This document shows positions 403 to 63,554 of a stretch of DNA of 64,000 bases, in pieces. This DNA comes from a virus. Under the pieces are notes generated by a model. That model was not told the origin of the DNA and searched no databases. It worked only from the letters and a program-made list of their open reading frames with translations. The DNA lies in UHGV virus genome UHGV-0277504; one strand, 5' to 3'. The translations under genes and the position numbers were made by a program. The stretch's first letter is position 1. Every line of letters starts with the position of its first letter.

Positions 403-413
403 TCATCTCTTTT

Positions 414-3020: not shown

Positions 3021-3076
3021 TTAAATCTGTCCTTTGTTAAAAAATATGTATAAAAGGTGGTTTATAAACCACCTTA

Positions 3077-3874: not shown

Positions 3875-3936
3875 TTTACCTTTTTTCTTTTTATCTCCTA
3901 GTATGCCATACGTTAAAGTATATAAGTTTTTAAATA

Positions 3937-8200: not shown

Positions 8201-8579
8201 CTAAAGTATTATTTAATTTTTCATATGATTTTTGTAAATTTGTATTAGGTGCTTTACCCATTGCTATTTGTTCTTTTTGAGCATCGGATATAGCATCTTT
8301 AAAATCATTAATTTCTTTAGTAGCTTTTCTTGTAGAATCTACTACTGTATTCATATCTTTAGAAGATATAAAAGCACTACCATCAGTTTTATCAGCAATA
8401 TCTTTAATTCTTTTAAATTGAGATGCTATAATTTTTAGTTTATCAGCCATACCGTCAATCGGTTTGTCAAGCTCCATATTTTCTATAGCATCCATATAAG
8501 CTTGTATGATTTTTAAACTACTCTCTAACTGAGAGCTATCACCTGATATATTCAATCTATAATTATCATTCATTGCCAT
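5262..8579 (-). CDS. tail tape measure protein (exon 1 if spliced)
   Basis: 1105 aa; long coiled-coil region; Gly-rich GxxGxG/KGKG repeats; position between tail chaperones and muralytic tail proteins. Confidence 0.85.
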   Translation of the reverse strand: MAMNDNYRLNISGDSSQLESSLKIIQAYMDAIENMELDKPIDGMADKLKIIASQFKRIKDIADKTDGSAFISSKDMNTVVDSTRKATKEINDFKDAISDAQKEQIAMGKAPNTNLQKSYEKLNNTLESMTENLDEFSSKTVGTDSGINTRIQDMKRLGEATDDYYESLNNAMTAQQKMKQIRASEYRVRRNLDKSEISGRMSYDTGTQTKSAIGKSQFMRRDSADLKKQLADLRNRDKNDTSMSNLNRRFTNKEIDKSTYQQERAQIEANNKARAKEIDSIEKLIRQMDTTSNYFDNVASKQMNDRRIDPARGTFKGIFRERAPSIASHGVMAGMAVGGGMYMKGKSLSETNRPQKIALGQQMGTSDYKSVRHNFEEMSIDNHLGYNSTDMLKFASDYMGSVGYKGQDNVNSGVKELATGGKAMGIADDQAYRDSMNTLMHTGAIDSGADIKDIQSAFLGGLKESGMVGRNEEQLKALSSIAESVGQGRTMTKNDLSNVSSMQSMLASSGSKGLQGQQGAEFMSSLNDGIRNGMQDPYIRNAMGWGSQYQGLEGRYDLQKRMDKGIADPENVSDLYQQATQVSSSKKGQKIAFNESLKQMGVDATLEQSDELFKMAEEGKLTKKALEDYKKKTSKEGSKERDKNSKDYKESQEGKDDQGKAKADRLAENLYDMTGKIRNVNTALMSLPAPFYLAGASAMAFAVSLMKSIAMMKGSEMLGRRANGESLLGRRGRGKGRNGRAGGRRGRTDNGSGTPIGGGGSPKKPNGDGGGTFHKGSTGRKGGRLGRVGDFGKRLIQVGEYKPTDTSRGGQIKGLGDLGKKIKGGTTRAGEGIKGIDWKGLGNNAKNIGRGVVSKGRGIDWKGIGSNAKTTGKGIVSKGKGLLSKIPKGKGGTSGITAGARGLKGLGKGIPLLGLGISALDIGSSLKSGNKEAIGGSIGGATGATAGGAIGATIGSVIPGLGTAIGGIAGSTIGGIVGDKAGSEVGKKGLKKSLGIGWTKPKSYKDFGLVGKAWHGLFGSKKGKNKNIPTNDPTKIGFLGGAGKGGMGSPSDDKVKRNPALISMAPQLSHQGLSEFEKEGDKENKKGISGFRGNDCYKQIALLVA

Positions 8580-13261: not shown

Positions 13262-15046
13262 TTAGGCTTGTAATGCTTGTTGTTTATAAACAAGACTTAC
13301 AGAAATTTTCTTAATGCTTCTGATAGGGTAAATAGTTAATGAGATTCTAGCTTCTTTACCTTCGATAATAACTTGTACATCTTCTGGTGGGAAGTCTTGA
13401 ATTTCATTGTCACGTTTCTTACGTTCTAGGTAAGAGATTACAAAGTCTTTCATAATTGAAGCACTTGTATTAATTGTTCGTGTACCAATGAACTCATCTT
13501 CTAATTCTCTCTTCAATTCAGAAACTAAGAAGTCATTAGCTTCCCCTACAGCCATTTCTGACTTAATAGGGTCAGACATGTCATTGTAAGTAGTTACGTC
13601 TTCTACAATACGGAAGTTTGTAACAGTTCTATTACGAACAAACTCGATACTAATAATACCATTTTCATTTAATTCATCAAGGTCAGTAGAATCATAAATG
13701 TTATCTAAACCATTGACATGCAAGTGTTTAAATGTAATTGATTCTCCGATACCTAAACCTGAAGCTAGACCTGCTACAGCACTTGCTACCATGTAAGCTG
13801 GTGCATGCAATTTACGACCATTTTCCATACCTAAAGTAGCACTGTTAGCGATTAGAGATACTCGAGGATTCATTAATGAAGAAGCTCTTCCATAAAGTTT
13901 TTCTTTATGTTCTGCTATTCCTCCACCTACTATAGCTCTCATAGGTTCCCCTGCATCTGAACGTTCTCTAACAAAGTGAGCTACTTCTGCATGTACAGAT
14001 TCACGAGAAGATAATGGTACGATATAGTATCCACCTAAGTGAGCAAATTTCTCGAATTTATCAGCCCAGCTTGTAGGCTCTTCTCCGTTAGTACCACCTT
14101 CAAGTTTAGTTAACTCGAAAGGTTCAATAGTTTTAAATTTTGCACCTTCTTCTGTTGTTGCTGTTACTGTGGCATTGTCTTCTCCAGCATCTACTGTTAC
14201 ATCACTTGAATTAGATACGTCTTCTGGTACTCGTTCAAAATGAATTAAACCATTATATTCAGTTTGTTTTTGTAAGTCACCAAAAATAGCTGTTACATAA
14301 GCACCTTTATCTGTAACATCTAAATCTTCTACTGGGTCAAGTAATGTACTTTCAATGTTTTTATCTCCAAAAGGTGATAACTTAGCTTCAAAGTCTGGTA
14401 GTTGATTAATATCTGTAATAACTTCGTTAGTGTATTTATATAAACCACCACTTAAGTCATACGATTTAACAACATTATCTCCAACTTTTAATACTAGACT
14501 TTCAGCTTTTTGTGTTTCATCATCATGGATTACAGAAACAGTAGCTTTAGGCTCTTCACCAGTATATTTAACTGTAAAGATATTACCAATGTTGTCATAA
14601 ACTTCATTAAATCTGTCGTTTTCAAAAATCAAACGCAAACGTAATGATTTACTTAAGTTGTTTTTCTCTAGAGCTACTTGAATATTATTAGACGCATTAC
14701 CGTAAATATCTGATACGATACGTAAACCGCCTTTTTCAACAGATGCTGGTTTAGCGTCTTCTACACGCATTGCAAAAATTTGACCTGCTGTGTAGTTAGG
14801 ATTAGAACCCCAAGCTAATTCAATAGCGTCTAAAAGCTCACCTGAACGGAAAGTACGTTTTGCTTGTGAATAGTTACGTAATTTATAAACTTGGTTAGGT
14901 TCCCCGCCTTCAGCTTTACCAATTAACATTAAAGTTTTTTCACTGGCACTTGCTGAACCGCCGATACCTGATGAATCTACTTCAATAGTAGCATGAGGTC
15001 TCGTAATAGGTCTACGTGGGAATACTTCTTTATAATCATTTGCCAT
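13262..15046 (-). CDS. tail sheath protein
   Basis: 594 aa; size and position (after head-tail connector genes, before tube) match myovirus sheath proteins. Confidence 0.85.
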   Translation of the reverse strand: MANDYKEVFPRRPITRPHATIEVDSSGIGGSASASEKTLMLIGKAEGGEPNQVYKLRNYSQAKRTFRSGELLDAIELAWGSNPNYTAGQIFAMRVEDAKPASVEKGGLRIVSDIYGNASNNIQVALEKNNLSKSLRLRLIFENDRFNEVYDNIGNIFTVKYTGEEPKATVSVIHDDETQKAESLVLKVGDNVVKSYDLSGGLYKYTNEVITDINQLPDFEAKLSPFGDKNIESTLLDPVEDLDVTDKGAYVTAIFGDLQKQTEYNGLIHFERVPEDVSNSSDVTVDAGEDNATVTATTEEGAKFKTIEPFELTKLEGGTNGEEPTSWADKFEKFAHLGGYYIVPLSSRESVHAEVAHFVRERSDAGEPMRAIVGGGIAEHKEKLYGRASSLMNPRVSLIANSATLGMENGRKLHAPAYMVASAVAGLASGLGIGESITFKHLHVNGLDNIYDSTDLDELNENGIISIEFVRNRTVTNFRIVEDVTTYNDMSDPIKSEMAVGEANDFLVSELKRELEDEFIGTRTINTSASIMKDFVISYLERKKRDNEIQDFPPEDVQVIIEGKEARISLTIYPIRSIKKISVSLVYKQQALQA

Positions 15047-33256: not shown

Positions 33257-33466
33257 ATGGTAAAATCAATTGAATTAACAATGAATAGTGGTAAAACATT
33301 CTTTTTAATAAGTACTGAAGATGAAAAATACACTCATTCTTCTGTGAACGCAATGTTAAGAGGAAATAGTAATCCTTCTGTAAAAGTCCATACTAGTAAT
33401 GATATTAATTCTGATGTGGTTTATATTAACCCTTTCTTTATTGAATCATTTAAGATGAATTATTAA
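33257..33466 (+). CDS. hypothetical protein
   Basis: MVKSIELTM… after GGAGAG SD (track ORF 33209 extended). Confidence 0.45.
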   Translation: MVKSIELTMNSGKTFFLISTEDEKYTHSSVNAMLRGNSNPSVKVHTSNDINSDVVYINPFFIESFKMNY

Positions 33467-33569
33467 AGGCTAACTTATGTTAGTCTTTTTTTATATATCT
33501 ATTATACCATAAACATCTTGAATATTAAAATTAAACTATCTCAATTTCCAACACTACTAAATATTAATT

Positions 33570-33770
33570 ATTTATTGTTAATATATTGATTATTAATAAT
33601 TAATATATATAAATATATATATTAGAGTAATCCTTATTTTCCAAATATACAAATTACCTAAATATTCAGAATTCTTTTTCCTTATATATAAATATTGTTA
33701 ATATATTTGTTATTAATAATTAGTATTAGTATATATAAATAATAGTTATTAGAACTGGTCTTATTTGCCA
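33570..33770. repeat. two ~34-bp direct repeats, each containing the palindrome TTATTAATAA, in an AT-rich intergenic region
   Basis: TATTGTTAATATATTGATTATTAATAATTAATAT (33575) vs TATTGTTAATATATTTGTTATTAATAATTAGTAT (33694), each followed by CTTATTT(T/G)CCAAATA. Confidence 0.6.
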
Positions 33771-33846
33771 AATAGTTAAAAAAACCTCTAAAACACTTGA
33801 TATTAAAGGATTTTAATCAAAAATTTAAAAAAGTTTATAAAAAGTG

Positions 33847-33875
33847 TTGACATTTATCAAAAATAAGATTATAAT
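33847..33875 (+). promoter_or_regulatory. sigma-70-type promoter (TTGACA-17-TATAAT) with upstream AAAAGTG
   Basis: Exact consensus hexamers, 17-nt spacer. Confidence 0.65.
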
Positions 33876-33914
33876 AAACTTAACAATAAAAAATTAAGAA
33901 AAGGATTGATATAA

Positions 33915-34796
33915 ATGGAATTAATCAAAAAATTTAATTATGAAGATAATAAAGTAAGAGTTGTTGAAAAGAATGGAGAAATTTACTTTGTTGGTAAAGA
34001 TATAGCAAATATCTTAGGGTATACAAATTCAAGAAAAGCATTATTAGACCATGTCGATGAAGAAGATAAGCTGGTGTCACGAATCGTTACGGCAGGTCAA
34101 AATAGAAATATGATAATTATTAATGAATCAGGATTATATAGTTTAATATTTTCTTCAAAATTAGATAAAGCTAAAGAATTTAAACGATGGGTAACTAAAG
34201 AAGTATTACCTGATATTAGAAAATATGGAATGTATATTGATGATTCTTTTATCAAAACAATTATAGATAATCCTCAAAGTGCAAGAGAAGAAATGCTTAA
34301 GTATTTTAATGAATCTCAAAGATTACAAAAAGTAGTAAAAGACTTAGAACAAGAAAATGATATGTTAAGAGAACTAGAAAACGAAGTAGGTGTTTTAGAG
34401 AGTAAAGTAGAATTACTTTCAAATAAACCAAATAACTCAGATTGGAAAAAAGAAGCAAATAAAAGAGTTAGACAATTAACACCAAAATTAACAAGTATTA
34501 TATATCCTAATTTTGGTAAAGCATGGAATGAAGTATACAGAGAAATGTTATATTCAGAAAACATTAATATTAAATCTAAACATACAAGAAGATTAAAAAG
34601 AATGGAAAACAATAATGTATCTCAAAGTGAGATTAATAACACAACAATTTTGGATACAATTGGAACTGATGTAGAATATATTGACAAAATGTTCAATGCA
34701 ATATCTAACTTAGAACAGAGAAATATTAACTCAGAAAATAATTTTAATGAAAAACCTTTTTATGATTCAGGTAATTTTAGTGGTTTACTTATTTAA
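33915..34796 (+). CDS. Bro-N domain protein (anti-repressor-like)
   Basis: N-terminus VRVVEKNGEIYFVGKDIANILGY matches Bro-N/KilA-N fold motif. Confidence 0.65.
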   Translation: MELIKKFNYEDNKVRVVEKNGEIYFVGKDIANILGYTNSRKALLDHVDEEDKLVSRIVTAGQNRNMIIINESGLYSLIFSSKLDKAKEFKRWVTKEVLPDIRKYGMYIDDSFIKTIIDNPQSAREEMLKYFNESQRLQKVVKDLEQENDMLRELENEVGVLESKVELLSNKPNNSDWKKEANKRVRQLTPKLTSIIYPNFGKAWNEVYREMLYSENINIKSKHTRRLKRMENNNVSQSEINNTTILDTIGTDVEYIDKMFNAISNLEQRNINSENNFNEKPFYDSGNFSGLLI

Positions 34797-34809
34797 TTTA
34801 AAAAAAGTA

Positions 34810-34838
34810 TTGACATTAACAATTAAACATGTTATGAT
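34810..34838 (+). promoter_or_regulatory. sigma-70-type promoter (AAAAAGTATTGACA-17-TATGAT)
   Basis: Consensus -35, 17-nt spacer. Confidence 0.6.
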
Positions 34839-34875
34839 AAATATATCAAAAATTAAGAAAAGGATTTGATTAAGT

Positions 34876-35097: not shown

Positions 35098-35127
35098 TAA
35101 AAAATTTAAAAAAGTTTTAAAATAAAC

Positions 35128-35156
35128 TTGACACAGGGTTATTTTTATGTTATGAT
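35128..35156 (+). promoter_or_regulatory. sigma-70-type promoter (TTGACA-17-TATGAT) driving the 35160-35990 non-coding region
   Basis: Consensus -35, 17-nt spacer. Confidence 0.6.
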
Positions 35157-35159
35157 ATA

Positions 35160-35990
35160 TGTATCAAATAAAACAAATCCCTTACACAACTGTTTTTTCA
35201 TTACGTTGTTTTCCAGTTCAAACAATAACAGCGTTTGCCTATAACTAATGATTAGACTATAAACAAATCAAGAGGAAATTAGTCTATTCCTCTAATATAA
35301 TTTTAATACAACTAAACATCTGAACATAGTGACTGAATAAGTGAGTGATGTCACTAAGGTGTAAGAATGTCTTAGGAAGCCTACTAAAGTGTGAGAACCT
35401 TTAGAGGTATCCTCAGAGGGATATTTATTCCGAAAGGATTGCTTAGCACTTGGATATAAGGATTATACGGTAGAGAGACTATCAGTGATGAATCACTAGT
35501 CAAGGTCTTAGCGGAATCTTGACTAGTTACGCTACTAAAATCATTTACGTGGTTGGAGCCTAGAAATAGGTTTGATAATGATTGTCTTTCGTACAAGTAG
35601 CACAAACCCACGATAAAGCTAAAGAAAACAAAAAATATATGTTATTTTAATTCTTCACATCGTGTGAAAGTTGGTAAGTAACTGTCCTTACCCCTATACT
35701 GTGGAAACACTCATAAAAGTGGACTATGGCTAGCTACCATATAGAACTTTCTATGACTAGGTTACCTAATAATAATTCTTGTATTTCAGGTTCCCCGTGA
35801 AAAGGGATATGTTTGGATGTTTAGTTGTATTATACAACTAACTTCTCTTTCATTTTAATATTCATATCAATGGTTTTTGACTCCTTTACCATTGATAGAG
35901 AGAAACCCCTTATAAGAACATATTCATTTGTACAAACAAACACCTCCTTATAAAAAACAAAAAAACTTATAAGGGGTTTTTACATACACA
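35160..35990 (+). ncRNA. candidate large structured non-coding RNA / intron-derived element
   Basis: ~830 nt without credible ORF, locally GC-richer with many hairpins; contains group-I-like GACUAUAA…UAGUCUAUUCC pair; ends with long-range stem CCCCTTATAAG…CTTATAAGGGG + TTTTT. Confidence 0.4.
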
Positions 35991-37326: not shown

Positions 37327-38058
37327 ATGAAAACTAAAAAACAAGCTTTAAAATGGATTTTAAATACTATAGGTCAAGGTATAGATTGGGATAAAATGTA
37401 TGGGTTTCAATGTATGGATTTAGTTGTTGCTTATTTATATTACGTTACTGATGGGAAAATAGCAATGTGGGGAAATGCTATTGATGCTCCTAAAAATAAT
37501 TTTAAAGGTACTGCTAAAGTAATTAAAAATTACCCTGCTTTTAGACCTGAAGCAGGAGATATAGTAGTTTGGTCTTATGGTAATTTTAGTACTTACGGAC
37601 ATATTGCTGTAGTTATAGATGGAGACCCTTACGGTGACTTGCAGTATATCACAGTAGCTGAGCAAAATTGGAATGGTTTAGGACTATACAAACAAGAAGT
37701 TACTACAAAACGTATTCATAATTACGATGGTGTATCTCATTTCATAAGACCTAAGTTCAAAAAAACAGTTAAAAAAGAAGATAACACTCTTACAAAAGAA
37801 AAAAACAACAAAAAAACAAAAGGAAAAAAATTAAAAGTATCAACACAAAGAATAAACTACACTATGGATAAAAGAGGTTATAAACCTAAATTTGTTGTAA
37901 TACACAATGATGCTGGTAGTTCTTCTGCACAACAGTATGAACAAGGATTAAAAAATGCAGGATACAGTAGATATGCTCAAGGAGTAGCACATGCATACGC
38001 TTCTGATGGTTATGTGTGGGAAGCAATATCAGAAGATAGAATAGCTTGGCATACGGGT
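37327..38058 (+). CDS. endolysin exon 1 (CHAP domain + start of amidase_2 domain)
   Basis: CHAP motifs (FQCMDLV…GHIAVV); amidase start VVIHNDAG…AWHTG; exon ends at GGGU of P1. Confidence 0.8.
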
Positions 38059-38410
38059 AAATAGTTGCCCTGTTATATAGTAATGTATAATTAAAATTCT
38101 TTTAATTGACTGGGAGGCTAAGGCTATCAAGCTATGCTAATCAGCATCCAAGAATATTGTTTAAAAAAACTACTTGACAACATAATAACTTTTGGAAACA
38201 ATATTAAGGTTCAACGACTATCCTTATAGACGAGTGCCAATAAAAAATAAATCGTCAACAGGAGTAGGGCTCAAGTTAATGGAGTAGGTGAGAATCCTTT
38301 AAATCGAAATGGAGAACCCCTAAAATAATTAGGGTGAAGATATAGTCTAGACTTATAGGAAACTATGAGAAGTTCATAAGAGAACTGGTAGAGTGTTACG
38401 AACTCTATTG
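38059..38410 (+). ncRNA. group I intron in endolysin gene (352 nt, no ORF)
   Basis: P1 GGGU|AAAUAGUUGCCC; P2-like GUUAUAUAGUAAUGUAUAAUUAAAA; P7 GGUUCAACGACUAUCC; S-element GAAGAUAUAGUCUAGAC; P9 AGAGUGUUACGAACUCU; omega-G 38410. Confidence 0.8.
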
Positions 38411-39142
38411 AATATATCGGATGGAACAAATCCAGGAACAGGTAACTTTGAAGGATATGGAATTGAAGTTTGTCAATCTTTAGGAGATAGAAATACTTTC
38501 TTAAAAAATGAGCAAACTGTATTCCAATTTATTGCAGAAAAATTGCAAAAATGGAACTTACCTGCAAATAGAAATACCATCAGACTTCATAATGAATTTA
38601 TACAAACAGAATGTCCCCATGCTTCAGCATATTATCATGCAGGTATGAATACTAAAGTAGATGCTTATACAAAAGAAAGACAATTAAAAATAAAAGATTA
38701 TTTCATAAAACAAATTAGAGCATACATGAAAGGAAGTACACCTAAATCTACAGTAGTAAAATCTAGTAAAAGTAGTGGTTCTTTACCTAAGAAACAAGGT
38801 AAAAAACAAAAATTTAAATCAAATATTGGTAAAACATTCGACTTTAATGGATTAAATACCAATACTTGGGGTACTAAATGGTATTATGAAAATAATACAT
38901 TTACATGTAATGCTCGACAAGGTATCATAACAAGAGTAGGTAGTCCGTTTACAAACGCACCTCAAGCAGGTGTTTTATTCTACGGACAAACTGTAACATA
39001 TAATCAAGTAGCTGTTAATCCAAAAGAGCCATTTGTATGGATTTCATGGATTACAAATAATGGTACTGAAGTATGGATGCCTATTGAAGTCTTAGACAGT
39101 AATAATAAAATTATTGAGCAGTGGGGTACTTTTGGTTGGTAA
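38411..39142 (+). CDS. endolysin exon 2 (rest of amidase_2 + SH3b cell-wall binding domain)
   Basis: Spliced junction …AWHTG|NISDGTNPGTGNFEGYGIEVCQS restores a contiguous N-acetylmuramoyl-L-alanine amidase domain; C-terminal SH3b-like WYYENNTFTC…. Confidence 0.8.
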   Translation, partial: NISDGTNPGTGNFEGYGIEVCQSLGDRNTFLKNEQTVFQFIAEKLQKWNLPANRNTIRLHNEFIQTECPHASAYYHAGMNTKVDAYTKERQLKIKDYFIKQIRAYMKGSTPKSTVVKSSKSSGSLPKKQGKKQKFKSNIGKTFDFNGLNTNTWGTKWYYENNTFTCNARQGIITRVGSPFTNAPQAGVLFYGQTVTYNQVAVNPKEPFVWISWITNNGTEVWMPIEVLDSNNKIIEQWGTFGW

Positions 39143-46962: not shown

Positions 46963-47598
46963 ATGATAGCTCAAATAATATACAAGGATATACCTATATT
47001 ACTTGCTATGCTATATGGTATTTTAGTAATTATAGGATATATACCAGCTTTAATATCGTTAGTAAAAGATAAAAATCTAAATGGAGTTAGTAGTAGTTTT
47101 TGGTACTTAATAAGTGTAACTGTAGGTATTAGTTTTTATAATATAATATTAACTGGAGGAACACGATTTCAAGTAGTATCAATATTCTTAAACTTTCTTT
47201 TAGGTGTTGTTTGCTTACTAGTACTTAATTATCGTAAATTTAAATTTCATGGTATAGTTTATACAGTTATATTCTTATTAGCATTATATTTATTTTTAGG
47301 ATTATTAACTAGTATAGAAATTACACAAACAGTAGCTAGTGTATCTATTGTACTAGCTTATGTAGGACAAATATATAAATTTGTTAAATCTAAATCTTCT
47401 AGTGGTACTAATAAATGGTTATACTTACTTATAGGTGTAGGTTTATTAAGTTTAGTTACAAGTATGGTTTTAACTGATGTGTCTAATCATATTATTATAA
47501 CAGAATTAATTAATTTTATTTTAATATTAATTTGTTATTTTATGTCTAATTATTACTATAAAAGTGGGGTAGATATAAGTGAAAGACGAAGTAAGTAA
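46963..47598 (+). CDS. polytopic membrane protein (possibly PnuC-like transporter)
   Basis: 211 aa, ~6 TM segments; family assignment tentative. Confidence 0.4.
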   Translation: MIAQIIYKDIPILLAMLYGILVIIGYIPALISLVKDKNLNGVSSSFWYLISVTVGISFYNIILTGGTRFQVVSIFLNFLLGVVCLLVLNYRKFKFHGIVYTVIFLLALYLFLGLLTSIEITQTVASVSIVLAYVGQIYKFVKSKSSSGTNKWLYLLIGVGLLSLVTSMVLTDVSNHIIITELINFILILICYFMSNYYYKSGVDISERRSK

Positions 47599-53139: not shown

Positions 53140-53394
53140 ATGCGTTTATATCAAGCAGAACACGATAATTGTGAGCAATATGAAGACAATTATTCTTATA
53201 GAGAAAATAAAGCTTATACAAATAAGGATAACTTAATTAAACGTATTAAAGAAGAAGGGTACGAAGAAAAAAGAAGCGGTTACCTTCAAGATGGGTACAT
53301 TTATTACCATAAAGATAATATAGAAGATGTACCTCTTTTTAAGGAAGATATGATTATAATCCATGAATTAGAAATTGTTAAAGAAAATACTTAA
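53140..53394 (+). CDS. hypothetical protein
   Basis: 84 aa. Confidence 0.45.
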   Translation: MRLYQAEHDNCEQYEDNYSYRENKAYTNKDNLIKRIKEEGYEEKRSGYLQDGYIYYHKDNIEDVPLFKEDMIIIHELEIVKENT

Positions 53395-53452: not shown

Positions 53453-53926
53453 ATGAGTAAATATGAAAAAGAAATAGAACAATTTTTAGAATCAGAAAGT
53501 GTAAAAATAGATTATGGTACTTTTGAATTAGAATTTGAAAAAGGTAAATCTCCATTTATTCATTTACTATATAAAGGATTACCAATTGATACACTAGAAA
53601 ATTATCTTATTATTACAGAAGAGTATTTACAACAACTATTTGAAAAATATGAATATTATCCTAAGGAATACTTTGAAGATAAGTTAACTAAAACAGATAA
53701 AAGAATTAAAAAAAGAAAAATAGGAAATGAAATACTAAATAAAACTAAAGACCTACATGAATTATCTTCAGAAATAGAAAAAATTATTAAGCTTTATGAA
53801 GAAGCATTTAATACAAAAGAAGAATATTTATTTAAAGAATATGAAATAGGTTTATATATTACACACTTAGATGAAGTTATCCAAAAGTTAAATAAGTATA
53901 CAGAATATAATAATAATGACTTTTAA
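53453..53926 (+). CDS. hypothetical protein
   Basis: 157 aa. Confidence 0.5.
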   Translation: MSKYEKEIEQFLESESVKIDYGTFELEFEKGKSPFIHLLYKGLPIDTLENYLIITEEYLQQLFEKYEYYPKEYFEDKLTKTDKRIKKRKIGNEILNKTKDLHELSSEIEKIIKLYEEAFNTKEEYLFKEYEIGLYITHLDEVIQKLNKYTEYNNNDF

Positions 53927-56986: not shown

Positions 56987-57057
56987 TTGTAATAATTCCT
57001 TTCTTAACTTTCTATAATTATAATATCATGTTATAGTTACGTTGTCAATAGTTTTTT

Positions 57058-57387
57058 TTAAATTTCTAAATATCTTTTTTTGTCTGTATCTGGGTTGTGA
57101 ATTTCAATTTTTAAAGTTGTATCATTATTAAATACTGAGCAAATTGTTTCATTATCTAAATTCATTAATTTGTTGTTAATTACATAATCAAAAATTTCAT
57201 CCATTAGTTTATCTTCTTTTTCAGTGTTTGGCTTATCTTCATATAAATCCTTACCATCGTTAAAGTTTTCAATATCCATAAAGTTATAGTTTGATAAAAA
57301 TTTATTTTTGAAATTTGTCATAGTAATCAATTCCTCTCTTGTTTTAATTTCTATATTTATATTAACATGTATTATGTAAGGTGTCAA
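57058..57387 (-). CDS. hypothetical small early protein
   Basis: 109 aa. Confidence 0.45.
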   Translation of the reverse strand: MTPYIIHVNINIEIKTREELITMTNFKNKFLSNYNFMDIENFNDGKDLYEDKPNTEKEDKLMDEIFDYVINNKLMNLDNETICSVFNNDTTLKIEIHNPDTDKKRYLEI

Positions 57388-57495
57388 TACCTTTTTTTAT
57401 TTTTTTCTGTAAGGTGTGGGAGTTTTCCGCTCCCTTAACCTTACATCTTTATATTATCATAGTTTCAAATTATTGTCAATAGTTTTTTTTAAAAT

Positions 57496-57825
57496 TTATT
57501 CTACAAATTCTATAGGCTCAATTTCCCCGTCTTCTAGTAGTTCATTGTAGCGTTCTACAATTTCATTGTAATTGTCTTTCAATAGTTCTTTATAGTCTAG
57601 GTTGTCTAAGCTGTCTAAGTTACCGTAAACGTTAATCGTGAAATAATCATCATTCCAATCAAACTCTCCAAAGTGTGCCATTCTTAAAATTTCTGTAACT
57701 GATATGCCTACTAAAATCTCGTCTAGTTCATCCATTGGATTATAGTCAAATTCTTCTAAACTGTCATCCCATGCGTTAACCTCTCTTACGATTTCTTTTA
57801 ATTGTTCTACTGTGTATTTTTTCAT
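57496..57825 (-). CDS. hypothetical small early protein
   Basis: start MKKYTVEQ after AAAAGGAATTGATTAGA leader. Confidence 0.5.
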   Translation of the reverse strand: MKKYTVEQLKEIVREVNAWDDSLEEFDYNPMDELDEILVGISVTEILRMAHFGEFDWNDDYFTINVYGNLDSLDNLDYKELLKDNYNEIVERYNELLEDGEIEPIEFVE

Positions 57826-58141
57826 TCTAATCAATTCCTTTTCTTTGTTTTGTTTTTCTTTCTATAATTATAATACCATGTGCTTTAGTTTCTGTCAATA
57901 CTTTTTTTAAAGTTTTTTTTTATTTTTTTCTGTAAGGTGTTTCCTTAACCTTACAACTATATAATATCAAATAGTGAAGAGATTGTCAACACTATTTGAT
58001 AAAAATATTTATACTATCTTGAATACTAATCAAGTAATCAAGAACAGTAATAACTGTTGTACCACCTACTAAGGTAGCCAAAGCGTCAGTTAATTCTGTG
58101 CTTTTATATGATTTGTTTTTATATTTAAATTTAATCATTTT

Positions 58142-58381
58142 TTAAGCTCCTTTTTTTATATATTTTGTTTTATTATCATTAAGAATAAGTTTAACACATT
58201 TAGGAGTAGTTGAGATTTCTTTTGCTCCTGTGCCATATAGATTTAAACATGATAAATTTATTTTATAGAACAAGTCATCACATTCTTCAATGTTAGACCA
58301 TTGAGAAACATCAGGTGTTATAGTTCCCTGCTCTTTAATTCTTTCGTATGTGTCGGCTATATAGTTTTTATATTCTTTCAT
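58142..58381 (-). CDS. hypothetical small early protein
   Basis: start MKEYKNY after AAAGGAATTGTTACAA leader. Confidence 0.45.
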   Translation of the reverse strand: MKEYKNYIADTYERIKEQGTITPDVSQWSNIEECDDLFYKINLSCLNLYGTGAKEISTTPKCVKLILNDNKTKYIKKGA

Positions 58382-58460
58382 TTGTAACAATTCCTTTCTT
58401 TATTTGTTAAGTTAATAATAACATGTGTAGGGGTTGATTGTCAACCCCTTTATTTAATTT

Positions 58461-58601
58461 TTATTTTTGTAACTCTTCTAGTTCTTTTTTAGCTTTCTTA
58501 ATCTCTCTTCTTGCTTCCGCTTCTTCTTTCTTAGTAAGGTCTTGGAATTCCAATTCCATTTCTAAGTTCTCGATAATGCTTTCTAGTTCTAATTCTCTCA
58601 T
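58461..58601 (-). CDS. small coiled-coil peptide (46 aa, MRELELESIIENLEMELEFQDL…)
   Basis: Identical leader AAAGGAATTGTTACAAATG as the gene at 58381; below the ORF-track cutoff; plus-strand ORF 58438..58638 is probably its shadow. Confidence 0.4.
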   Translation of the reverse strand: MRELELESIIENLEMELEFQDLTKKEEAEARREIKKAKKELEELQK

Positions 58602-59487
58602 TTGTAACAATTCCTTTCCTTATTTGTTAACTCTATAATAACATGTTGTGTTTAAGTTGTCAATAGTTATTTTGAATATTTTACAATTTTATTTGCTTTC
58701 AAAAATGTAACATCTTGACGGTAGCTTTTTAATTCTTCTGCAAAATTTTCATTATTTTTCATACCGATTAATTTTAAAGTTGTTGTAATTTTTTTCATTT
58801 AAATCAATTCCCTTCAAATTCTATAATTTTTTTATTTAATTTCTTTAGGTTAGAAGCGGTTGACCGCTTCCTTAACCTTACAATTATATAATATCATAGT
58901 TTCAAGTGACTGTCAACACTTTTTAAAAAATTAATTCTTTTTCTTTTTTACTATCCATATACATTTTTATTTCACAACATAACCAAAGTGTTATCATTTG
59001 TAACAACCCCTAATTAATAATTTTTTTATATAATTCTTGTAAGGTTTGTTATTGCTTTCCCTTACAACTATTATATTACTACACATTAAAAACAATTGCA
59101 ACCCCTAAATGCAAATTTTTTTAAGAAAAAAAAATAAAAAAAATTTGTAAAACCCCTTTACAAATACCGTAGAATTTGTTATTCTATATATATAGAAAGA
59201 AAGCGGTGACCTGCATCCATGTCCGCTATATAAATGAAGTTGTAGGGGGAAAGACTAGCCCTAAACCTTTTAATATAAAAAAGTTATTTAATTTTATTTT
59301 TATATTAAAAAAAGATTCCCACTCTATTATAGCATTTTTAATATAATATTGTCAAGTACCAATTTTACACCCTTTTATTTATTATATAATTTTTTTATAT
59401 AAATATAAAACAAATAAAAAACCTAGGAATTTAATCCTAGGTAAATTATTATTTAATATAATTTTTTTATTTAATTCAGAAGCGGTT

Positions 59488-59769
59488 TTATTTAACCGCT
59501 TCTTTTTCTTTAACTGTTTCTAGTGCCCATTTGATAGTTTCTTCAATGTTGTAGCTTTGGAATACTACACCGCCACCGAACCATTTAGCAGTGTACTTTT
59601 TAAAACCATATAGCTTATTAATCTCATCATAATCCCAAAGGCTAATACCTAGGTCGCTAAAGTGTACTACATATCTAGGGTTTCCGTTATTATCATTTTC
59701 AATTCTGAAAGCTGTAATCTCGTTTCCATTTACTGTCACTGTTTCTTCATATTTAAAATTCTTTTTCAT
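59488..59769 (-). CDS. hypothetical small protein
   Basis: 93 aa; followed by minus-strand terminator at 59440-59465. Confidence 0.5.
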   Translation of the reverse strand: MKKNFKYEETVTVNGNEITAFRIENDNNGNPRYVVHFSDLGISLWDYDEINKLYGFKKYTAKWFGGGVVFQSYNIEETIKWALETVKEKEAVK

Positions 59770-59979
59770 TTAAATCAAATCCTTTTCTATATATTTTTTA
59801 TTAAATTTCCTTATTTGCTTTAAGTTATTTCCTTAACCTTACATCTTTATATTAACATGTTTCTTATAAGCTGTCAACACCTTTTTAAAACTTTTTTTTT
59901 AATTTTTTTCTTGCTGTTGTTTCCTTTCCCTTACAAGTATTATTATAGCAAAAAGGGGCTATGATTACAACCCCTATTT

Positions 59980-60297
59980 TTAAATAATTTCATCTAAAAC
60001 AATTTCCCCGTTATCAATAACGATAACACCACCTTGAATAATAAAGAAAATCAATCCTTTATATTCCCGTGCTATTCCGTAATCATAAGGCGTTTTACCA
60101 AATAGTTTGTTACGTTTATAGAATGTAATATCTTCACTGTGTAAACCACCAGGTACGTGTACAGTTAGTTCAGGATGCCAACCTGTGCCCCCTAAATCAT
60201 TTCTGTATAAGTTTTTGGACTTATACCCATCATAACCAAATGTTTCCATTATATTATTTGCAATTAATTCTATATTATTTTTATACAATATTATCAA
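59980..60297 (-). CDS. hypothetical small protein
   Basis: 105 aa. Confidence 0.45.
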   Translation of the reverse strand: MIILYKNNIELIANNIMETFGYDGYKSKNLYRNDLGGTGWHPELTVHVPGGLHSEDITFYKRNKLFGKTPYDYGIAREYKGLIFFIIQGGVIVIDNGEIVLDEII

Positions 60298-60858
60298 TTC
60301 CCTTCTGTGAATTACTGTAATTATATATTATCATTTATCTTATGATTAATCAATAGATTTACATAAATTTATTTAACTTTTTTCGTTGGTCTATTTTCTA
60401 CTATTATATGAAGAAACTGGAAAATAGGTTAAAATAAAATTAGATTGTGTACAACAAGATCTCACCATAAAAAAATTATTATATAAAAAAATTATAGTTA
60501 TGCTAAATAATAAAATAAATAAGCAGGTGTAAAATTGACTATTGATTTTGAACATGGTTTATTATATAATGGAAGTGATGACTATCTTTAAGTTAATAAA
60601 TATATTATATAAAAAAATTATATAATACCCTTTTTTTATAACCCACCCACCACTCCAATTATTATGTTAAGGCATTTTTGCCAATTTGTCAAGAGGTAAA
60701 TTTTACACTTTTTTCTTTTGTAAATAGTGTAAAATTGCCCTAAAAACTTTTAAAATTATATTTACAAATACGGTAATATGCTGTAATATATTAAGTGTAG
60801 TAAGCAAGGGAAACAAATTCCCACTACAAATATTATATAAAAAAGGAATTGATTAAAA

Positions 60859-61080
60859 ATGAAAAACGTTAAAAATTTAAAAAATTGGTTAAAAAGAAAC
60901 AATTATGATTTTGAAGAATACAACACGCCAGACGGTTGTGGGAGCACATTGAAAGGGATTATTATTCATAACATTGAATTTGCTACTGAGAATGATGAAC
61001 TAGTTGCTCTATTCCCTGATGGTGATTATGAACACATGACAAACAGACAAGCTTATAACTTTATTAGAAAAAACATTTAA
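60859..61080 (+). CDS. hypothetical small protein
   Basis: AAAAGGAATTGATTAAAAATG leader. Confidence 0.5.
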   Translation: MKNVKNLKNWLKRNNYDFEEYNTPDGCGSTLKGIIIHNIEFATENDELVALFPDGDYEHMTNRQAYNFIRKNI

Positions 61081-61112: not shown

Positions 61113-61313
61113 ATGACACATATTAAAGTAGATAAAAGAAAATCATTAAATAAAAATATAAAAGAAAATGGATTAAAAAAAGAATTAAATAAAAATAGTG
61201 GAAAAATAAAAATAAAAGAAAGTTTATTAAGAAAAGCAAAAAGAAATAATGATATAGAAAAAATTAATAAACTAGAAAATGAATTAAAAAAATTATATAA
61301 TCAATTAGACTAG
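61113..61313 (+). CDS. lysine-rich small protein
   Basis: AAAAGGAATGAATTAGAATG leader. Confidence 0.45.
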   Translation: MTHIKVDKRKSLNKNIKENGLKKELNKNSGKIKIKESLLRKAKRNNDIEKINKLENELKKLYNQLD

Positions 61314-61335
61314 GGAAAACCCTAGTCTTTTTATG
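61305..61335 (+). terminator. rho-independent terminator
   Basis: AGACTAGGG-AAAA-CCCTAGTCT + TTTTAT. Confidence 0.65.
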
Positions 61336-61359
61336 TTCTATATCTTATATCTTTTTTAG

Positions 61360-61545
61360 GGGAAATCCGTACGATACTACTTGCTATTTTTAGGGGAAAA
61401 TCGACACCAGACTACTTGAAACAACTAGCCTTTTTCATACAATACTACTTACTAATTATGTATATTTATAAGAATATTTGAATAAAATTCATACAATACT
61501 ACTTACATTATATAGGTAAAATATAGACAATACTACTTGAATATA
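61360..61545. repeat. iteron-like array: five copies of (A)ATACTACTT(G) spaced 35-50 bp
   Basis: GATACTACTTGCT (61371), AGACTACTTGAAA (61408), AATACTACTTACT (61441), AATACTACTTACA (61491), AATACTACTTGAA (61526). Confidence 0.55.
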
Positions 61546-62162
61546 TAATAGTATTCAGGAAGGTAGTGGGTAGATTAACCCCCTAGTATTAAAAAAGATA
61601 TTAATACTAGAGCTAAATCATATTTCAGTTTAGGCTAGGTCTAGTTTCATTTTTGTTAATATTTTTACACGCACTCTTATCCACGCAACCTAAATTAATA
61701 GGTTAATACTACCCCGTTCATATTGAACCTAAGAGTCCTCCCTGTCCTTTATTGCTTGGTAGACATCACCAACTATGGTAGAAGGTATAGTGTATCTATA
61801 CCTACAAAGTATAAGCATTGCATATCTTATACCCGCCCTGTGAGTTTTATGCAGGTGCTCGTGGCTCACTACCACCACATCGTTGTCGCTATTCCTATAG
61901 GTTCCTATGCATGACCTATACTCATCAGCTCTTTATCTTATTGTACTTATACTATACCATACTTTTAATATCAGGTCAAGTAAAAAATGATAACTTTTAC
62001 TTATTATTTGATATAAGTTTATCTTATTATAAATAAAACTTTTTTGAAATTTTTAAGCAACCTATCGTAAAAATTTTTAAGGGGGTATCATCCTAAATTT
62101 TTTAAGGTCTTCATCCTAAAATAACAAACCGCTTCGAGAATTTAATCTGAAGCGGTTTGTTA

Positions 62163-62363
62163 TTATAAAGTATTGTTAACTTCTTTAAGTAATTTTAATA
62201 ATTCATCATATTTTTCATCTGTCAATCTACTATTTTCTTTTAAAGTTTTATCTAAGAAGTTAGGTAATTCTTCATCAGAATAAGATGTTCCTTTACCTAA
62301 TTCTTCTAAATAACGTTTTACTATATACTCTACTGTTTCTAATTCTTTTAGTGATTCTCTCAT
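62163..62363 (-). CDS. hypothetical small protein
   Basis: 66 aa; hairpin CCGCTTC…GAAGCGG downstream. Confidence 0.45.
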   Translation of the reverse strand: MRESLKELETVEYIVKRYLEELGKGTSYSDEELPNFLDKTLKENSRLTDEKYDELLKLLKEVNNTL

Positions 62364-62387: not shown

Positions 62388-62723
62388 TTACTTCATACCT
62401 TTAAAAAATTTATTTAATTTAATCTTTTCTTTTTCTTCTTTTTCAAGTCTTTCTTTATTTTTTTCATCATAGAAATCAATTAATTCGTAAATAGTATCAA
62501 ACTTAGTTAATTTCTTTTTAAAATTTCTACCTTTAAGTGTGTTTAATTCAAACATTTCAACATAGTTACCCTTTGATATAGTAACAATACCTCCTTCTTT
62601 ATCAAAAACACACTCTACACCATACTCATCATTAGTTATAGTATAATAAGTATTATACCCTACATAACTTTTTCTTCCATGTTCTTTAATATAATTTTTA
62701 AATCCAAGAATATCAATATCCAT
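62388..62723 (-). CDS. small protein, distant member of the 62864/63207 paralog family
   Basis: MDIDILGFKNYIKEHGRKSY…. Confidence 0.5.
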   Translation of the reverse strand: MDIDILGFKNYIKEHGRKSYVGYNTYYTITNDEYGVECVFDKEGGIVTISKGNYVEMFELNTLKGRNFKKKLTKFDTIYELIDFYDEKNKERLEKEEKEKIKLNKFFKGMK

Positions 62724-62863
62724 TTGTATAATCTCCTTTATATTTAATACCCTTAGCTTAAGGACTTTAAAAGTCTATATGAAGCGGTAATATTTTTCTA
62801 GTACTATTTATCCTAGAAACAATACCGCTTCTATATAAGGCTCTAAATAGCTTTAGAATTAAT

Positions 62864-63205
62864 CTAGCTTAAAAAGTCTTTAACACTTGATTCAATTCTT
62901 CTTTGTTTTCTCTTTTTTTCATTTTCTTTTCTAGTAAGGTCTTCATGTAATTCATCAATTAAATCAAATACACTAGAGTGTAATTCAATATCTTTGTTAA
63001 GTTGTTCTAATTTATTTAAATCACTAAGTTCTACCTCTAATACAGTTTTTCCATTTTTACAAAATAGTAAATAATTAGAAAAAACATTTGGTTTTTTATA
63101 TTGTATCTCATAACCTTTACCTAAGTCAATATTTTTAATTCCTTTATCATTCATTCTACCATACTTATCAATGTAATTTTTTAAGTCTATACTATCAAAT
63201 CTCAT
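62864..63205 (-). CDS. small protein, tandem paralog
   Basis: MRFDSIDLKNYIDKYGRMNDKGIKNIDLGKGYEIQY…. Confidence 0.55.
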   Translation of the reverse strand: MRFDSIDLKNYIDKYGRMNDKGIKNIDLGKGYEIQYKKPNVFSNYLLFCKNGKTVLEVELSDLNKLEQLNKDIELHSSVFDLIDELHEDLTRKENEKKRKQRRIESSVKDFLS

Positions 63206-63206
63206 C

Positions 63207-63554
63207 TTATAAACCTCCTAAAAAGTCTTTAACTTTTGATTCAACTTTTCTTTGTCTTCTCTCTTCTTCACTTTCTTTTTTAGTACATTCTTCATATAAA
63301 TCATCAATTAAATTAAATACATTAGGGTATATTAAAATATTTTTATCAAGACATGTTACTTCAACCATATTATCAAGGTCTACCTTTAATACTTCTTTTC
63401 CATTTTTACAGAATAATAAATGGTTGGAAAAAATAATTGGTTCAAGATATTGTATTTCATACCCTTTTCCTAAATCAATAGTTTTAATTCCTTCATCATT
63501 TACTCTACCATACTTATCAATATAATTCTTTAAGTCTATACTATCAAATTCCAT
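63207..63554 (-). CDS. small protein, tandem paralog
   Basis: MEFDSIDLKNYIDKYGRVNDEGIKTIDLGKGYEIQY…. Confidence 0.55.
   Translation of the reverse strand: MEFDSIDLKNYIDKYGRVNDEGIKTIDLGKGYEIQYLEPIIFSNHLLFCKNGKEVLKVDLDNMVEVTCLDKNILIYPNVFNLIDDLYEECTKKESEEERRQRKVESKVKDFLGGL

Follow-up and report, generated by a model that had tools for sequence, protein, structure and literature searches.

A predicted structured RNA gene and a conserved repeat array lie side by side in the putative host-takeover region of a staphylococcal phage

Between two convergent genes of a Staphylococcus epidermidis phage there lie, according to the reading that we prefer, two adjacent and separable elements of the host-takeover region: a structured RNA gene on the minus strand and an array of CTACTTR repeats. 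We give this reading a probability of about 70%. The structured phage RNA is previously undescribed. The array, judging by its sequence, is homologous to an array between the treH and treI genes of phage K, and is both older than the RNA gene and separable from it. Staphylococcal Twortvirinae (phage K, ISP, SEP1, phiIPLA-C1C) are under study as candidates for phage therapy, and the host-takeover region of these phages is almost wholly “hypothetical”.

Genomic setting

Positions refer to the window, by which we mean the whole stretch of DNA that was analysed, 64,000 nt of the virus genome UHGV-0277504. The source phage is a Sepunavirus (Herelleviridae, Twortvirinae), and positions 61300-62160 are 99% identical to phiIPLA-C1C and phage 110. 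The reversed phage K segment 30.8-3.8 kb is collinear with window 39.7-60.3 kb, and homologues of Tre genes are found at window 57995-60327. We take the locus to be the probable host-takeover region of Sepunavirus, the counterpart of the long terminal repeat (LTR) of phage K. The convergent genes that a preliminary description had placed around a non-coding island are indeed present, and the flanks of the island are as follows:

61113-61313 (plus strand) and 62163-62363 (minus strand): convergent flanking genes
61307-61328 (both strands): bidirectional intrinsic-terminator hairpin, found by terminator scan
62117-62167: 19-bp hairpin, an inverted repeat at the right edge of an exchangeable slot

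The hairpin at 61307-61328 closes the plus-strand gene, and the Twillingate record has terminators annotated on both strands at its position. The hairpin at 62117-62167 overlaps the stop of the minus-strand gene and therefore likely ends the transcript of that gene; in SEP1, the same hairpin flanks the replacement cassette. The neighbouring proteins have no Pfam match, and the PHROG families into which they fall are of unknown function. The RNA gene lies about 2.5 kb from the place that the anti-CRISPR gene acrIIIA1 occupies in Twillingate, where gene content differs among relatives.

A predicted RNA gene on the minus strand

A minus-strand non-coding RNA locus had been listed as one of several candidate readings for the GC-rich block of the island and the inverted repeat beside it. 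It is this candidate that has held up: block and hairpin are predicted to form a structured non-coding RNA gene on the minus strand, a prediction strongly supported by a conserved promoter, compensatory changes and an asymmetry of G-U pairing between the strands. The block is GC-rich and C-rich on the plus strand, as described (GC of 0.345-0.425 at 61600-61999, against 0.285 for the whole window), and the RNA-sense strand has 85 G and 61 C. It is 74-79% identical across four otherwise divergent lineages, and most annotated records place no CDS there. The elements of the predicted gene are:

61979-61951 (minus strand): predicted sigma-70 promoter, with -35 element TTGACC at 61979-61974, a 17-nt spacer and extended -10 element TGgTATAGT at 61959-61951
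61944-61946 (minus strand): predicted transcription start, placed 5-7 nt downstream of the -10 hexamer
61726-61938 (minus strand): conserved 5' domain of the RNA, 213 nt, multi-branched, with 9 helices and 46 base pairs (alignment and covariance model)
61560-61725 (minus strand): variable 3' domain of the RNA, poorly aligned, with helices 10-13 of the consensus fold
61583-61610 (minus strand): 10-bp hairpin within the 3' domain, CUAGUAUUAA-N8-UUAAUACUAG on the minus strand, that is, CTAGTATTAA-N8-TTAATACTAG on the plus strand

All four marks of an RNA gene that we looked for, namely a promoter, compensatory helices, G-U asymmetry and lack of coding potential, were found. The promoter scan gave 10/12 matches plus the TG element at 61979-61951, and the -35 element, the 17-nt spacing and the TGn-10 element are retained in CF5, PG-2021_10, phiSA_BS1 and Golestan101-M. 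The predicted length of the conserved RNA is about 385 nt, with an end near 61560. No intrinsic terminator follows the conserved RNA, and the sole terminator-like site downstream of both RNA and array is the hairpin at 61307-61328, whose minus-strand T-tail is weak.

Within the 5' domain, 96.0% of cells are paired and 14 pairs show compensatory changes, compared with 0-1 in slid controls. The observed values were reached by 0/500 shuffles, a result to be read with the proviso that the fold rests on six sequences from four lineages and that relatedness alone can exceed a shuffle control. For the whole RNA, RNAalifold gives 68 pairs, and compensatory changes occur in 22 of these. The proportion of paired cells is 94.6%; shuffles reach 84.5%, and slid controls about 42%. 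Because 70 cells hold G-U pairs, pairing drops from 94.6% on the minus strand to 77.9% on the plus strand; the minimum free energies are -98.4 kcal/mol and -87.2 kcal/mol, respectively.

The 3' domain has a long-range closing helix, formed by GGGGUAG (61709-61715) and CUACCC (61568-61573), which also appears in the single-sequence fold. As this helix 10 is invariant, covariation lends it no support. When the 3' domain was aligned by itself, the alignment collapsed, owing to a 46-nt insertion that distinguishes two groups of lineages. The inverted repeat within this domain had been reported as 9 bp with N7 at 61585-61610; it is real, only its length (10 bp, with N8) and its coordinates (off by 1-2 nt) had to be corrected. 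CF5, PG-2021_10 and Baoshanvirus also have a hairpin there, with other arm sequences, according to alignments that are poor in the 3' region.

The substitutions in the block track base pairing and not codons. No reading frame is open in all aligned lineages, and the conserved 213 nt contain indels of 1, 2 and 5 nt, which shift the frame and exclude coding. These findings, together with the absence of Pfam matches for the three local ORFs, bear out the earlier impression that the block has no convincing ORF, and they speak against a small or decayed protein gene such as Twillingate gp11, for which a membrane protein of 41 aa is annotated; we consider this reading highly improbable. In its favour, short hypothetical proteins are annotated here in some records, and none of six candidate genes, gp11 among them, could be cloned into plasmids (PMC11662646); however, the gp11 ORF, mapped from its annotated coordinates, overlaps the promoter and no more than roughly 35 nt at the start of the RNA.

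The predicted RNA matches no family in Rfam 15, which gave 0 matches for the whole window at gathering thresholds, in a search that took in group I introns, hammerhead, GOLLD, ROOL, tmRNA, RNase P and staphylococcal sRNAs. At E<=10, the range 61200-62200 gave chance-level matches, mainly to the hairpin at 62117-62167 and none on the conserved 5' domain. A tRNA/tmRNA scan found none. A reading of CUGAUGAG...GGAAU as a hammerhead ribozyme was rejected, as the bases of the CUG pair within conserved helix 2, 6/6 sequences have U at position 15.1, no stem III could be drawn and there is no Rfam match.

Distribution of the RNA gene

In public collections scanned by pattern and profile, the RNA gene is limited to four staphylococcal phage lineages. 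The pattern scan returned known relatives only; a looser pattern with 16 specified bases gave chance matches in metagenomes and genomes, none of which fit the profile, and a plasmid collection gave no match. The covariance model has no match in phage K at 1-45 kb and 100-140 kb, nor at the SEP1 and Quidividi loci. SEP1 and Quidividi have HNH homing-endonuclease cassettes in the slot of the RNA gene, so the gene is accessory. In SEP1, the occupant of the slot, gp141, belongs to the very early class (PMC11265418). The only Sepunavirus transcriptome that we found in the literature is that of SEP1, a phage without the RNA gene. SEP1, Quidividi and the searched parts of phage K amount to natural “knock-out” relatives and, together with the variable stretch near acrIIIA1, they open the function of the RNA to a direct test in phage pairs that are already available.

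The octamer array

The five spaced repeats of the preliminary description are present, all on the same strand, in a unit that is longer than the motif noted there:

61371-61539 (plus strand): five direct copies of RCTACTTR within ACnATACTACTTR; arrays of the same core occur in SEP1, Quidividi, PG-2021_10 and phage K
61371-61383, 61406-61418, 61439-61451, 61493-61505 and 61527-61539 (same strand): the single copies
61352-61366 and 61387-61401 (plus strand): two G-rich “box A” elements of a repeat family, TTTTTTAGGGGAAAT and TTTTTAGGGGAAAAT, each preceding an octamer; the range 61352-61401 of the pair also takes in octamer copy 1 (61371-61383)

Four of the five copies are exactly ATACTACTT, a sequence with only two occurrences elsewhere in the 64-kb window, and the second copy is AGACTACTT. 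CTACTTR occurs 5 times in 160 nt, compared with an expectation of about 0.05 that derives from its 20 occurrences on the plus strand of the whole window. The full repeat unit consists of a G-rich box, TTTTT(T)AGGGGAAA(A)T, with the octamer 5-10 nt later. Outside the boxes, the copies are just 66-79% alike, and they are not contiguous. A search of the rest of the window for long matches to the array, direct or inverted, gave one 13-nt inverted match at 47168-47180, which lies inside a conserved membrane-protein gene and was judged to be due to chance. A full-text literature search for the octamer found nothing relevant.

The preliminary description would have counted an absence of the repeats from related genomes against itself; they are found there, in SEP1, Quidividi, PG-2021_10 and phage K. 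SEP1 (4+1 copies) and Quidividi retain the array in the company of their HNH cassettes. PG-2021_10 has 5 copies spaced 36-49 nt apart, headed by the same box, CTAGGGGAAAAT. The homologous array of phage K, 4x GAGCTACTTAG at K 2959-3037, is located between treH and treI; its copies are spaced 23-25 nt apart, and TAGGGAGAG-type boxes alternate with the octamers. The core is thus kept while the spacers are unrelated, and the array flanks of K and PG-2021_10 can be aligned. A 191-nt query from the K array was matched in 201 phage records, with at least 80% of the query covered in 170/201. Conservation extends to about 200 relatives of phage K. We found no annotation or description of the treH-treI array in Kayvirus (about 200 records), and the richly annotated MSA6 record has no annotation on the region; some 200 sequenced phages carry the array in their terminal repeat as a conserved but unannotated element.

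The label “iteron-like” suits the form of the array, which consists of direct repeats, but the role in an origin that came with it finds no support. Iterons are several same-strand short repeats in AT-rich non-coding DNA at plasmid and phage origins, and the array shares with them the common strand, the short repeats and the AT-rich non-coding setting (GC 0.254). It differs from them in its irregular spacing (35, 33, 54 and 34 nt from start to start), which is out of helical phase, in a conserved core of just 8 bp and in the lack of an adjoining initiator-like gene. Moreover, a candidate origin lies elsewhere: a homologue of the proposed K origin, including two long direct repeats, is found at window 33537-33910. 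We consider it very improbable that the octamers are origin iterons and that the adjacent RNA primes or activates replication, even though a strong predicted promoter is directed toward the array and the Baoshanvirus RNA gene, in the gap between gp191 and gp190, adjoins the AT-rich region proposed as the K origin. That Baoshanvirus copy has no clear octamer array, and relatives without the RNA gene are viable.

Does the array mark a genome end?

An LTR boundary had been proposed as well, and here homology speaks against the proposal. In its fuller form, it would have the array mark the Sepunavirus LTR border, or lie within a few hundred bases of it, with the octamers as recognition sites for end cutting or packaging, which we regard as quite unlikely. 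The LTR border of Kayvirus has 12-bp inverted repeats, TAAGTACCTGGG / CCCAGGTACTTA, plus a 35-bp tandem repeat (PMC6022877, PMC6445280), and 35-bp tandem repeats with partial copies of the 12-mer abut the K left border (PMC6445280). The array and this border have in common a TACTTA core, followed at the K right border by a TTTTTTGGGGAAAAT box, and repeated partial copies near the LTR end; the K right border CAGGTACTTA-TTTTTTGGGGAAAAT resembles ATACTACTTG-CTA-TTTTTAGGGGAAAAT of the window. However, TAAGTACCTGGG is absent from the window, in which the K border 12-mers with <=2 mismatches gave a single chance-level match at 12287, and the true counterpart of the array in K lies about 3 kb inside the 8.5-kb LTR (K 1-8486), as it does in about 200 relatives. 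An assignment of the array to the left end of the K LTR, based on synteny, was dropped for that reason. PG-2021_10, in addition, has homologues of K gp001-gp007 beyond the array and the RNA gene.

Several record ends and gene blocks would fit a border. vB_SepM_BE25 starts and ends exactly at octamers, with a 77-nt terminal overlap that equals window 61374-61450; since an overlap of 77 nt is typical of a circularised SPAdes contig, this break could stem from the assembly. One IMG/VR contig terminates at window 61965, the very early block gp141-gp154 of SEP1 stops at the slot, and K gp022 (BofL), with which the genes outside the K LTR begin, has a homologue at 53140-53394, which would give a block of about 7.5 kb. 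Against these stand the Sepunavirus records that we examined, none of which has duplicated ends, and other BE-series records, which break at an (ATT)n microsatellite. The ends of the BE05 and BE06 records near window 53.9 kb were rejected as genome ends because they are breaks at this microsatellite. From BLAST coordinates alone, the BE24 record probably also ends near window 53.9 kb. Our literature search found no mapping of Sepunavirus genome ends.

A model for the two elements

We suggest that the host RNA polymerase transcribes the RNA soon after DNA entry, with a start near 61945, and that the primary transcript may cross the array to reach the hairpin at 61328-61307, for a length of about 640 nt. 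As there is no gene downstream on its strand, the RNA is presumably not a leader. It would most likely act in trans, as a scaffold or decoy that binds a host or phage protein in takeover or counter-defence. For the octamers and TAGGGG boxes, we would favour a multi-site DNA platform for a sequence-specific protein. The spacing of 33-54 nt, unlike that of cooperative DNA-binding arrays, argues against such a platform, and no candidate for the binding protein was found among the adjacent genes, which belong to the PHROG families mentioned above.

Since the array lies in the untranslated tail of a leftward transcript in every lineage, a role at the RNA level is nearly as likely as a DNA platform. 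The repeated motif YAAGUAG, with CCCCUA boxes, in the 3' tail of whichever early transcript fills the slot could serve as a protein sponge, as a stability or processing element or as a mimic of a type III antitoxin, a possible reading that we nevertheless hold to be doubtful. In K, PG-2021_10, the window and SEP1 alike, the array keeps one orientation, with the end of the leftward gene or RNA on one side of it and the bidirectional terminator on the other. The spacing varies by lineage from 23 to 54 nt, which RNA-binding platforms tolerate, and the 33-35-nt unit is within the size range of ToxI-type repeats. A ToxI-like type III antitoxin would, however, have near-identical tandem repeats of about 34-45 nt with a toxin gene after them, whereas those of the array diverge and are interrupted, as described above; there is no same-strand gene before the terminator and no toxin gene near the array. 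The AAGTA-rich repeats at this site in CF5-like phages look inverted relative to the RNA, a weak observation that also counts against the RNA level. In phage K, a plus-strand transcript is reported to run from 3114, a position just beyond the array, antisense to gp009 (snc001, PMC9241854); we note that it would fit read-through from treH.

A more far-reaching version of our model, which we think unlikely, is that the RNA founds a new class among the large structured RNAs of phages (as a ribozyme, an assembly scaffold or a decoy against a host defence or takeover target) and that the array is a protein-bound, so far unrecognised signal of the terminal-repeat region. Structured RNAs of about 400 nt with strong covariation are rare in bacteria and phages, and such RNAs have often proved to be ribozymes or protein-binding machines. 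If this version is true, staphylococcal phages of a group studied for therapy make the RNA within the first minutes of infection, and the array, which is conserved in Sepunavirus as well as in about 200 Kayvirus genomes, binds a dedicated protein by which early transcription, the entry of DNA or the formation of ends is controlled.

Comparison with known systems

GOLLD and ROOL are large structured non-coding RNAs of Firmicutes phages and prophages; they are Rfam families defined by covariation, and we know of no established function for either. The window RNA is likewise large, highly structured, phage-borne, non-coding and defined by covariation. It differs from them in having no Rfam match, in being shorter (about 385-465 nt) and in its restriction to four staphylococcal phage lineages.

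The intergenic long non-coding RNAs lnc001 and lnc002 of phage K (Finstrlova et al. 2022, PMC9241854), one of which was reported to be the most abundant transcript and to have its own early promoter (PMC9241854), resemble the window RNA as intergenic non-coding RNAs of a staphylococcal Twortvirinae phage, the promoter of the window RNA being a predicted one. Unlike the window RNA, they adjoin tRNA genes, and they (K 13595-14229 and 37679-38832) have no sequence or covariance-model similarity to it; an nhmmer comparison of the window RNA with phage K gave a promoter match only (E = 0.05). The K RNA at 37679-38832 has its homologue elsewhere, at window ~35105-35834.

For the array, the nearest known counterpart is that between treH and treI of phage K. 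The two differ in copy number and spacing (4 copies at regular distances of 23-25 nt in K, 5 copies at 33-54 nt in the window), no RNA gene adjoins the array in K, and the flanking proteins have no detectable homology. They are linked through PG-2021_10 and its alignable flanks, and they have the same core, CTACTTAG in K and CTACTTR in the window, alternating with TAGGG-type boxes. In both phages, the array lies past the terminator of an opposite-strand gene, at a convergent junction of the Tre region, and in the same orientation relative to the transcript.

Occurrence of the GC-rich block

Segment 61300-62160 is 99% identical to its counterparts in Staphylococcus phages phiIPLA-C1C and 110, and 96-98% identical to those in Twillingate, Terranova, 80A/80B and most of the BE series (BE05-09, BE24, BE25), all members of Sepunavirus (Herelleviridae, Twortvirinae). 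The convergent genes and the odd base composition noted in the preliminary description were confirmed: the block between these genes has a GC content of up to 42.5% (28.5% for the window) and a C-rich plus strand. It carries no CDS in most annotated records and short hypothetical ORFs in the remainder. A sensitive DNA search found it in 36 phage records from four lineages, with 74-79% identity between lineages.

Lineages with the GC-rich block
Sepunavirus: 16 records
S. warneri phage CF5
PG-2021 phage group, from S. xylosus and relatives
Baoshanvirus: phiSA_BS1, phiSA_BS2, Golestan101-M

A convincing ORF is indeed absent: no frame is conserved between lineages, the local ORFs have no Pfam match, and the best-conserved 213 nt show inter-lineage indels of 1, 2 and 5 nt.

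A predicted structured RNA on the minus strand

The interpretation of the block as a predicted minus-strand structured RNA gene is strongly supported. The parts of the locus are as follows.

Features of the locus
61979-61951, minus strand: predicted promoter
61726-61938, minus strand: 5' domain of the RNA
61560-61725, minus strand: 3' domain of the RNA
61371-61539, plus strand: octamer array
61307-61328, both strands: terminator hairpin

The promoter (TTGACC, 17-nt spacer, TGgTATAGT) is conserved across lineages in the alignment, the others having TTGACA, TTGACT or TTTACA at the same 17-nt spacing from a TGn-extended -10 box; a start near 61945 and leftward transcription are therefore predicted. 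Since inter-lineage conservation ends at about 61565, the conserved RNA measures about 385 nt in the window; in Baoshanvirus it reaches up to 465 nt. A terminator scan found none directly after the conserved RNA, the next being the bidirectional hairpin at 61307-61328, so that a primary transcript of about 640 nt, running through the repeat array, is possible.

RNAalifold predicts for six sequences a consensus of 68 pairs in 13 helices, with 22 pairs kept via two-sided changes. In the full fold 94.6% of cells are paired, against 84.5% for shuffled partners (none of 500 shuffles attained the observed figure) and about 42%, with only 2-5 compensatory pairs, for partners slid by 1-3 columns. G-U pairs fill 70 cells, the same structure on the plus strand is only 77.9% paired, and the minus-strand fold is 11 kcal/mol more stable. 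Together with the conserved promoter, the compensatory pairs and this strand asymmetry bear out the earlier guess of a minus-strand ncRNA for most of the locus.

The 5' domain, with 46 pairs, 96% paired, and 14 compensatory pairs in its own alignment (0-1 in slid controls), is the solid part of the predicted fold. The 3' domain holds the previously noted inverted repeat, which is a real hairpin, although its arms measure 10 bp at 61583-61610 and not 9 bp at 61585-61610. The helix closing this domain pairs GGGGUAG (61709-61715) with CUACCC (61568-61573) and does not vary among the sequences; a 46-nt insertion separates the lineages, and the domain is not alignable on its own. A conserved string in the 5' domain, CUGAUGAG-(helix)-GGAAUAG (61904-61931, minus strand), resembles a hammerhead core but does not pass the hammerhead test. 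In the model it is an internal loop with a co-varying helix on either side, possibly a structured loop for binding protein or making tertiary contacts.

An accessory RNA family

Our main result is a predicted new structured RNA family in staphylococcal Twortvirinae. Against Rfam 15 the whole window had zero matches at gathering thresholds, and relaxing the cut-off to E up to 10 for 61200-62200 brought up nothing relevant; a profile search of all fetched loci returned known relatives only, and a plasmid collection held no match. A covariance model of the 5' domain, run on phage K 1-45 kb and 100-140 kb and on the loci from SEP1 and Quidividi, had no hit.

Besides being undescribed, the RNA is accessory. 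Its gene is missing from SEP1 and Quidividi, and the slot is filled in SEP1 by the HNH-endonuclease-like SEP1_141 and a small membrane protein, and in Quidividi by two membrane proteins together with an HNH homing endonuclease. SEP1_141 (phiIBB-SEP1, locus L011, 12408-13110) is annotated as hypothetical and matches HNH endonuclease families. The same slot difference, between Twillingate and the SEP1-type "PhilBB" (presumably phiIBB-SEP1), is 'gap 1' of the AcrIIIA1 discovery study, in which anti-CRISPR activity was mapped to gp17 and not to gap 1 (PMC11662646). The whole window has no homologue of Twillingate gp17 (AcrIIIA1; tblastn, E up to 1e-3); despite this absence, the neighboring Tre genes of the 57000-61000 stretch and the RNA gene are common to both phages. 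The gene occupying the RNA slot in SEP1, gp141, belongs to the very early class of transcripts (PMC11265418), consistent with an early promoter there.

The RNA gene sits among Tre genes in Sepunavirus, CF5-like phages and PG-2021_10. Its Baoshanvirus position is the gap between gp191 and gp190, next to the AT-rich stretch that has been proposed as the origin in K. The gene has the character of a self-contained cassette under its own predicted promoter. As no gene follows 3' of the RNA on its strand, it cannot be a leader or riboswitch, and action in trans is the reasonable inference. Upstream of the RNA gene, 62388-63554 (minus strand) encodes three tandem paralogues of 111-115 aa, all PHROG 9163 (unknown function); CF5 has relatives of this family on the opposite side of the RNA gene.

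The octamer array

The five copies first described are real; they read ACnATACTACTTR and lie on one strand, four with exact ATACTACTT and one with AGACTACTT. With 20 plus-strand occurrences of the CTACTTR core in the whole window, about 0.05 would be expected per 160 nt; the 160-nt array has five. Units are made up of a leading box, TTTTTAGGGGAAAAT, and the octamer, with 5-10 variable bases between them. A 13-nt inverted copy of the motif, TTCAAGTAGTATC, lies 14.2 kb leftward (47168-47180) inside a membrane-protein gene homologous to K gp210, probably by chance.

The repeats recur in related genomes. SEP1 keeps copies 1-3 unchanged, a differing fourth, and one extra (AAGTAGTAT) past the HNH gene SEP1_141, which is inserted within the array; the extra copy falls in the spacer of a predicted SEP1_141 promoter (TTGACA-17-TATATT, read from the sequence). 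Quidividi has two good and two decayed copies. In PG-2021_10, CTAGGGGAAAAT and then five CTACTTR or TTACTTA copies stand between the RNA gene and a K-like treI gene (87% amino-acid identity). Phage K has GAGCTACTTAG four times at 2959-3037, spaced 23-25 nt apart, with TAGGG-type boxes between copies, in the stretch that runs from the treH stop codon to the treI terminator; its flanks and those of PG-2021_10 align nearly base for base until the first unit. The K array region, within the annotated left LTR (long terminal repeat) and without a feature of its own, is matched in 201 phage records, 170 of them covering at least 80% of the query. Convergent junctions of the treH/treI type thus carry the array as a conserved feature, in which the 8-bp core is kept and the spacers are free; it is an element separate from, and older than, the RNA gene. 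What adjoins the RNA is an unannotated, widely conserved octamer element of the terminal-repeat region.

The array may serve at the DNA level, as a platform on which proteins bind independent sites. We favor this over a repeated RNA motif in the 3' tail of an early leftward transcript, with which constant position and orientation relative to that transcript, and free spacing, would agree, because the core resembles the motif at the K border, which acts as DNA, and because whatever transcript crosses the array, it is kept.

Replication origin and terminal-repeat border

For the array as a candidate origin, as first suggested, we found no positive evidence: its spacing is irregular, no initiator-like gene is adjacent, and the homologue of the proposed K origin lies at 33.5-33.9 kb. 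There, an AT-rich gap (33458-34869, especially 33537-33910; GC 0.217) between the gp190 and gp191 homologues is 73-77% identical to the proposed K origin region, both long direct repeats included. The gap spans about 1.4 kb in the window but 478 nt in K, and holds a 293-aa ORF at 33915-34796.

An LTR boundary was suggested as well. The window is collinear at 39.7-53.4 kb with reversed K 30.8-8.7 kb. This stretch ends at the homologue of BofL (gp022), in K the first gene beyond the LTR, and Tre homologues at 58.0-60.3 kb extend the collinearity. This synteny was initially read as placing the array at the K LTR left end, an argument removed by the internal position of the K array, 3 kb inside the LTR, and by gp001-gp007 homologues beyond the PG-2021_10 array. 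The K border 12-mer was not found in the window either. That the array marks the Sepunavirus LTR border is therefore improbable, even though octamer plus box resembles the right LTR border of K and two records end nearby. BE25 (OQ355703.1) starts with AAGTAGTAT at copy 3 and ends with AAGTAGTAT at copy 1, with an exact 77-nt overlap (window 61374-61450), which may reflect either an artefact of assembly or a real break in the DNA. An IMG/VR contig (IMGVR_UViG_3300006456_000001; 226,865 nt, far larger than a Sepunavirus genome) ends at the equivalent of 61965, which falls in the -35/-10 spacer of the RNA promoter. No mapping of Sepunavirus physical ends was found in the accessible literature.

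Other records break elsewhere. A short (ATT)n run at about 53905-53926, at the 3' end of gene 53453-53926, has grown to dozens of copies in vB_SepM_BE06. It is the breakpoint of the BE05 and BE06 records and, judged by BLAST coordinates, probably of BE24. Lying one gene downstream of the BofL homologue, this site corresponds to the right LTR border of K.

Comparison with the long non-coding RNAs of phage K

The predicted RNA and the published long non-coding RNAs of phage K (PMC9241854) are different molecules. A homologue of the K RNA at 37679-38832 lies at window 35105-35834 (plus strand), in patches of 79-95% identity, within the 1.4-kb gap that separates the gp191 and gp192 homologues. tRNA genes are absent from the window, whereas K has them beside this RNA, which, from its location between gp191 and the tRNA cluster, is probably the abundant one of the two reported for K.
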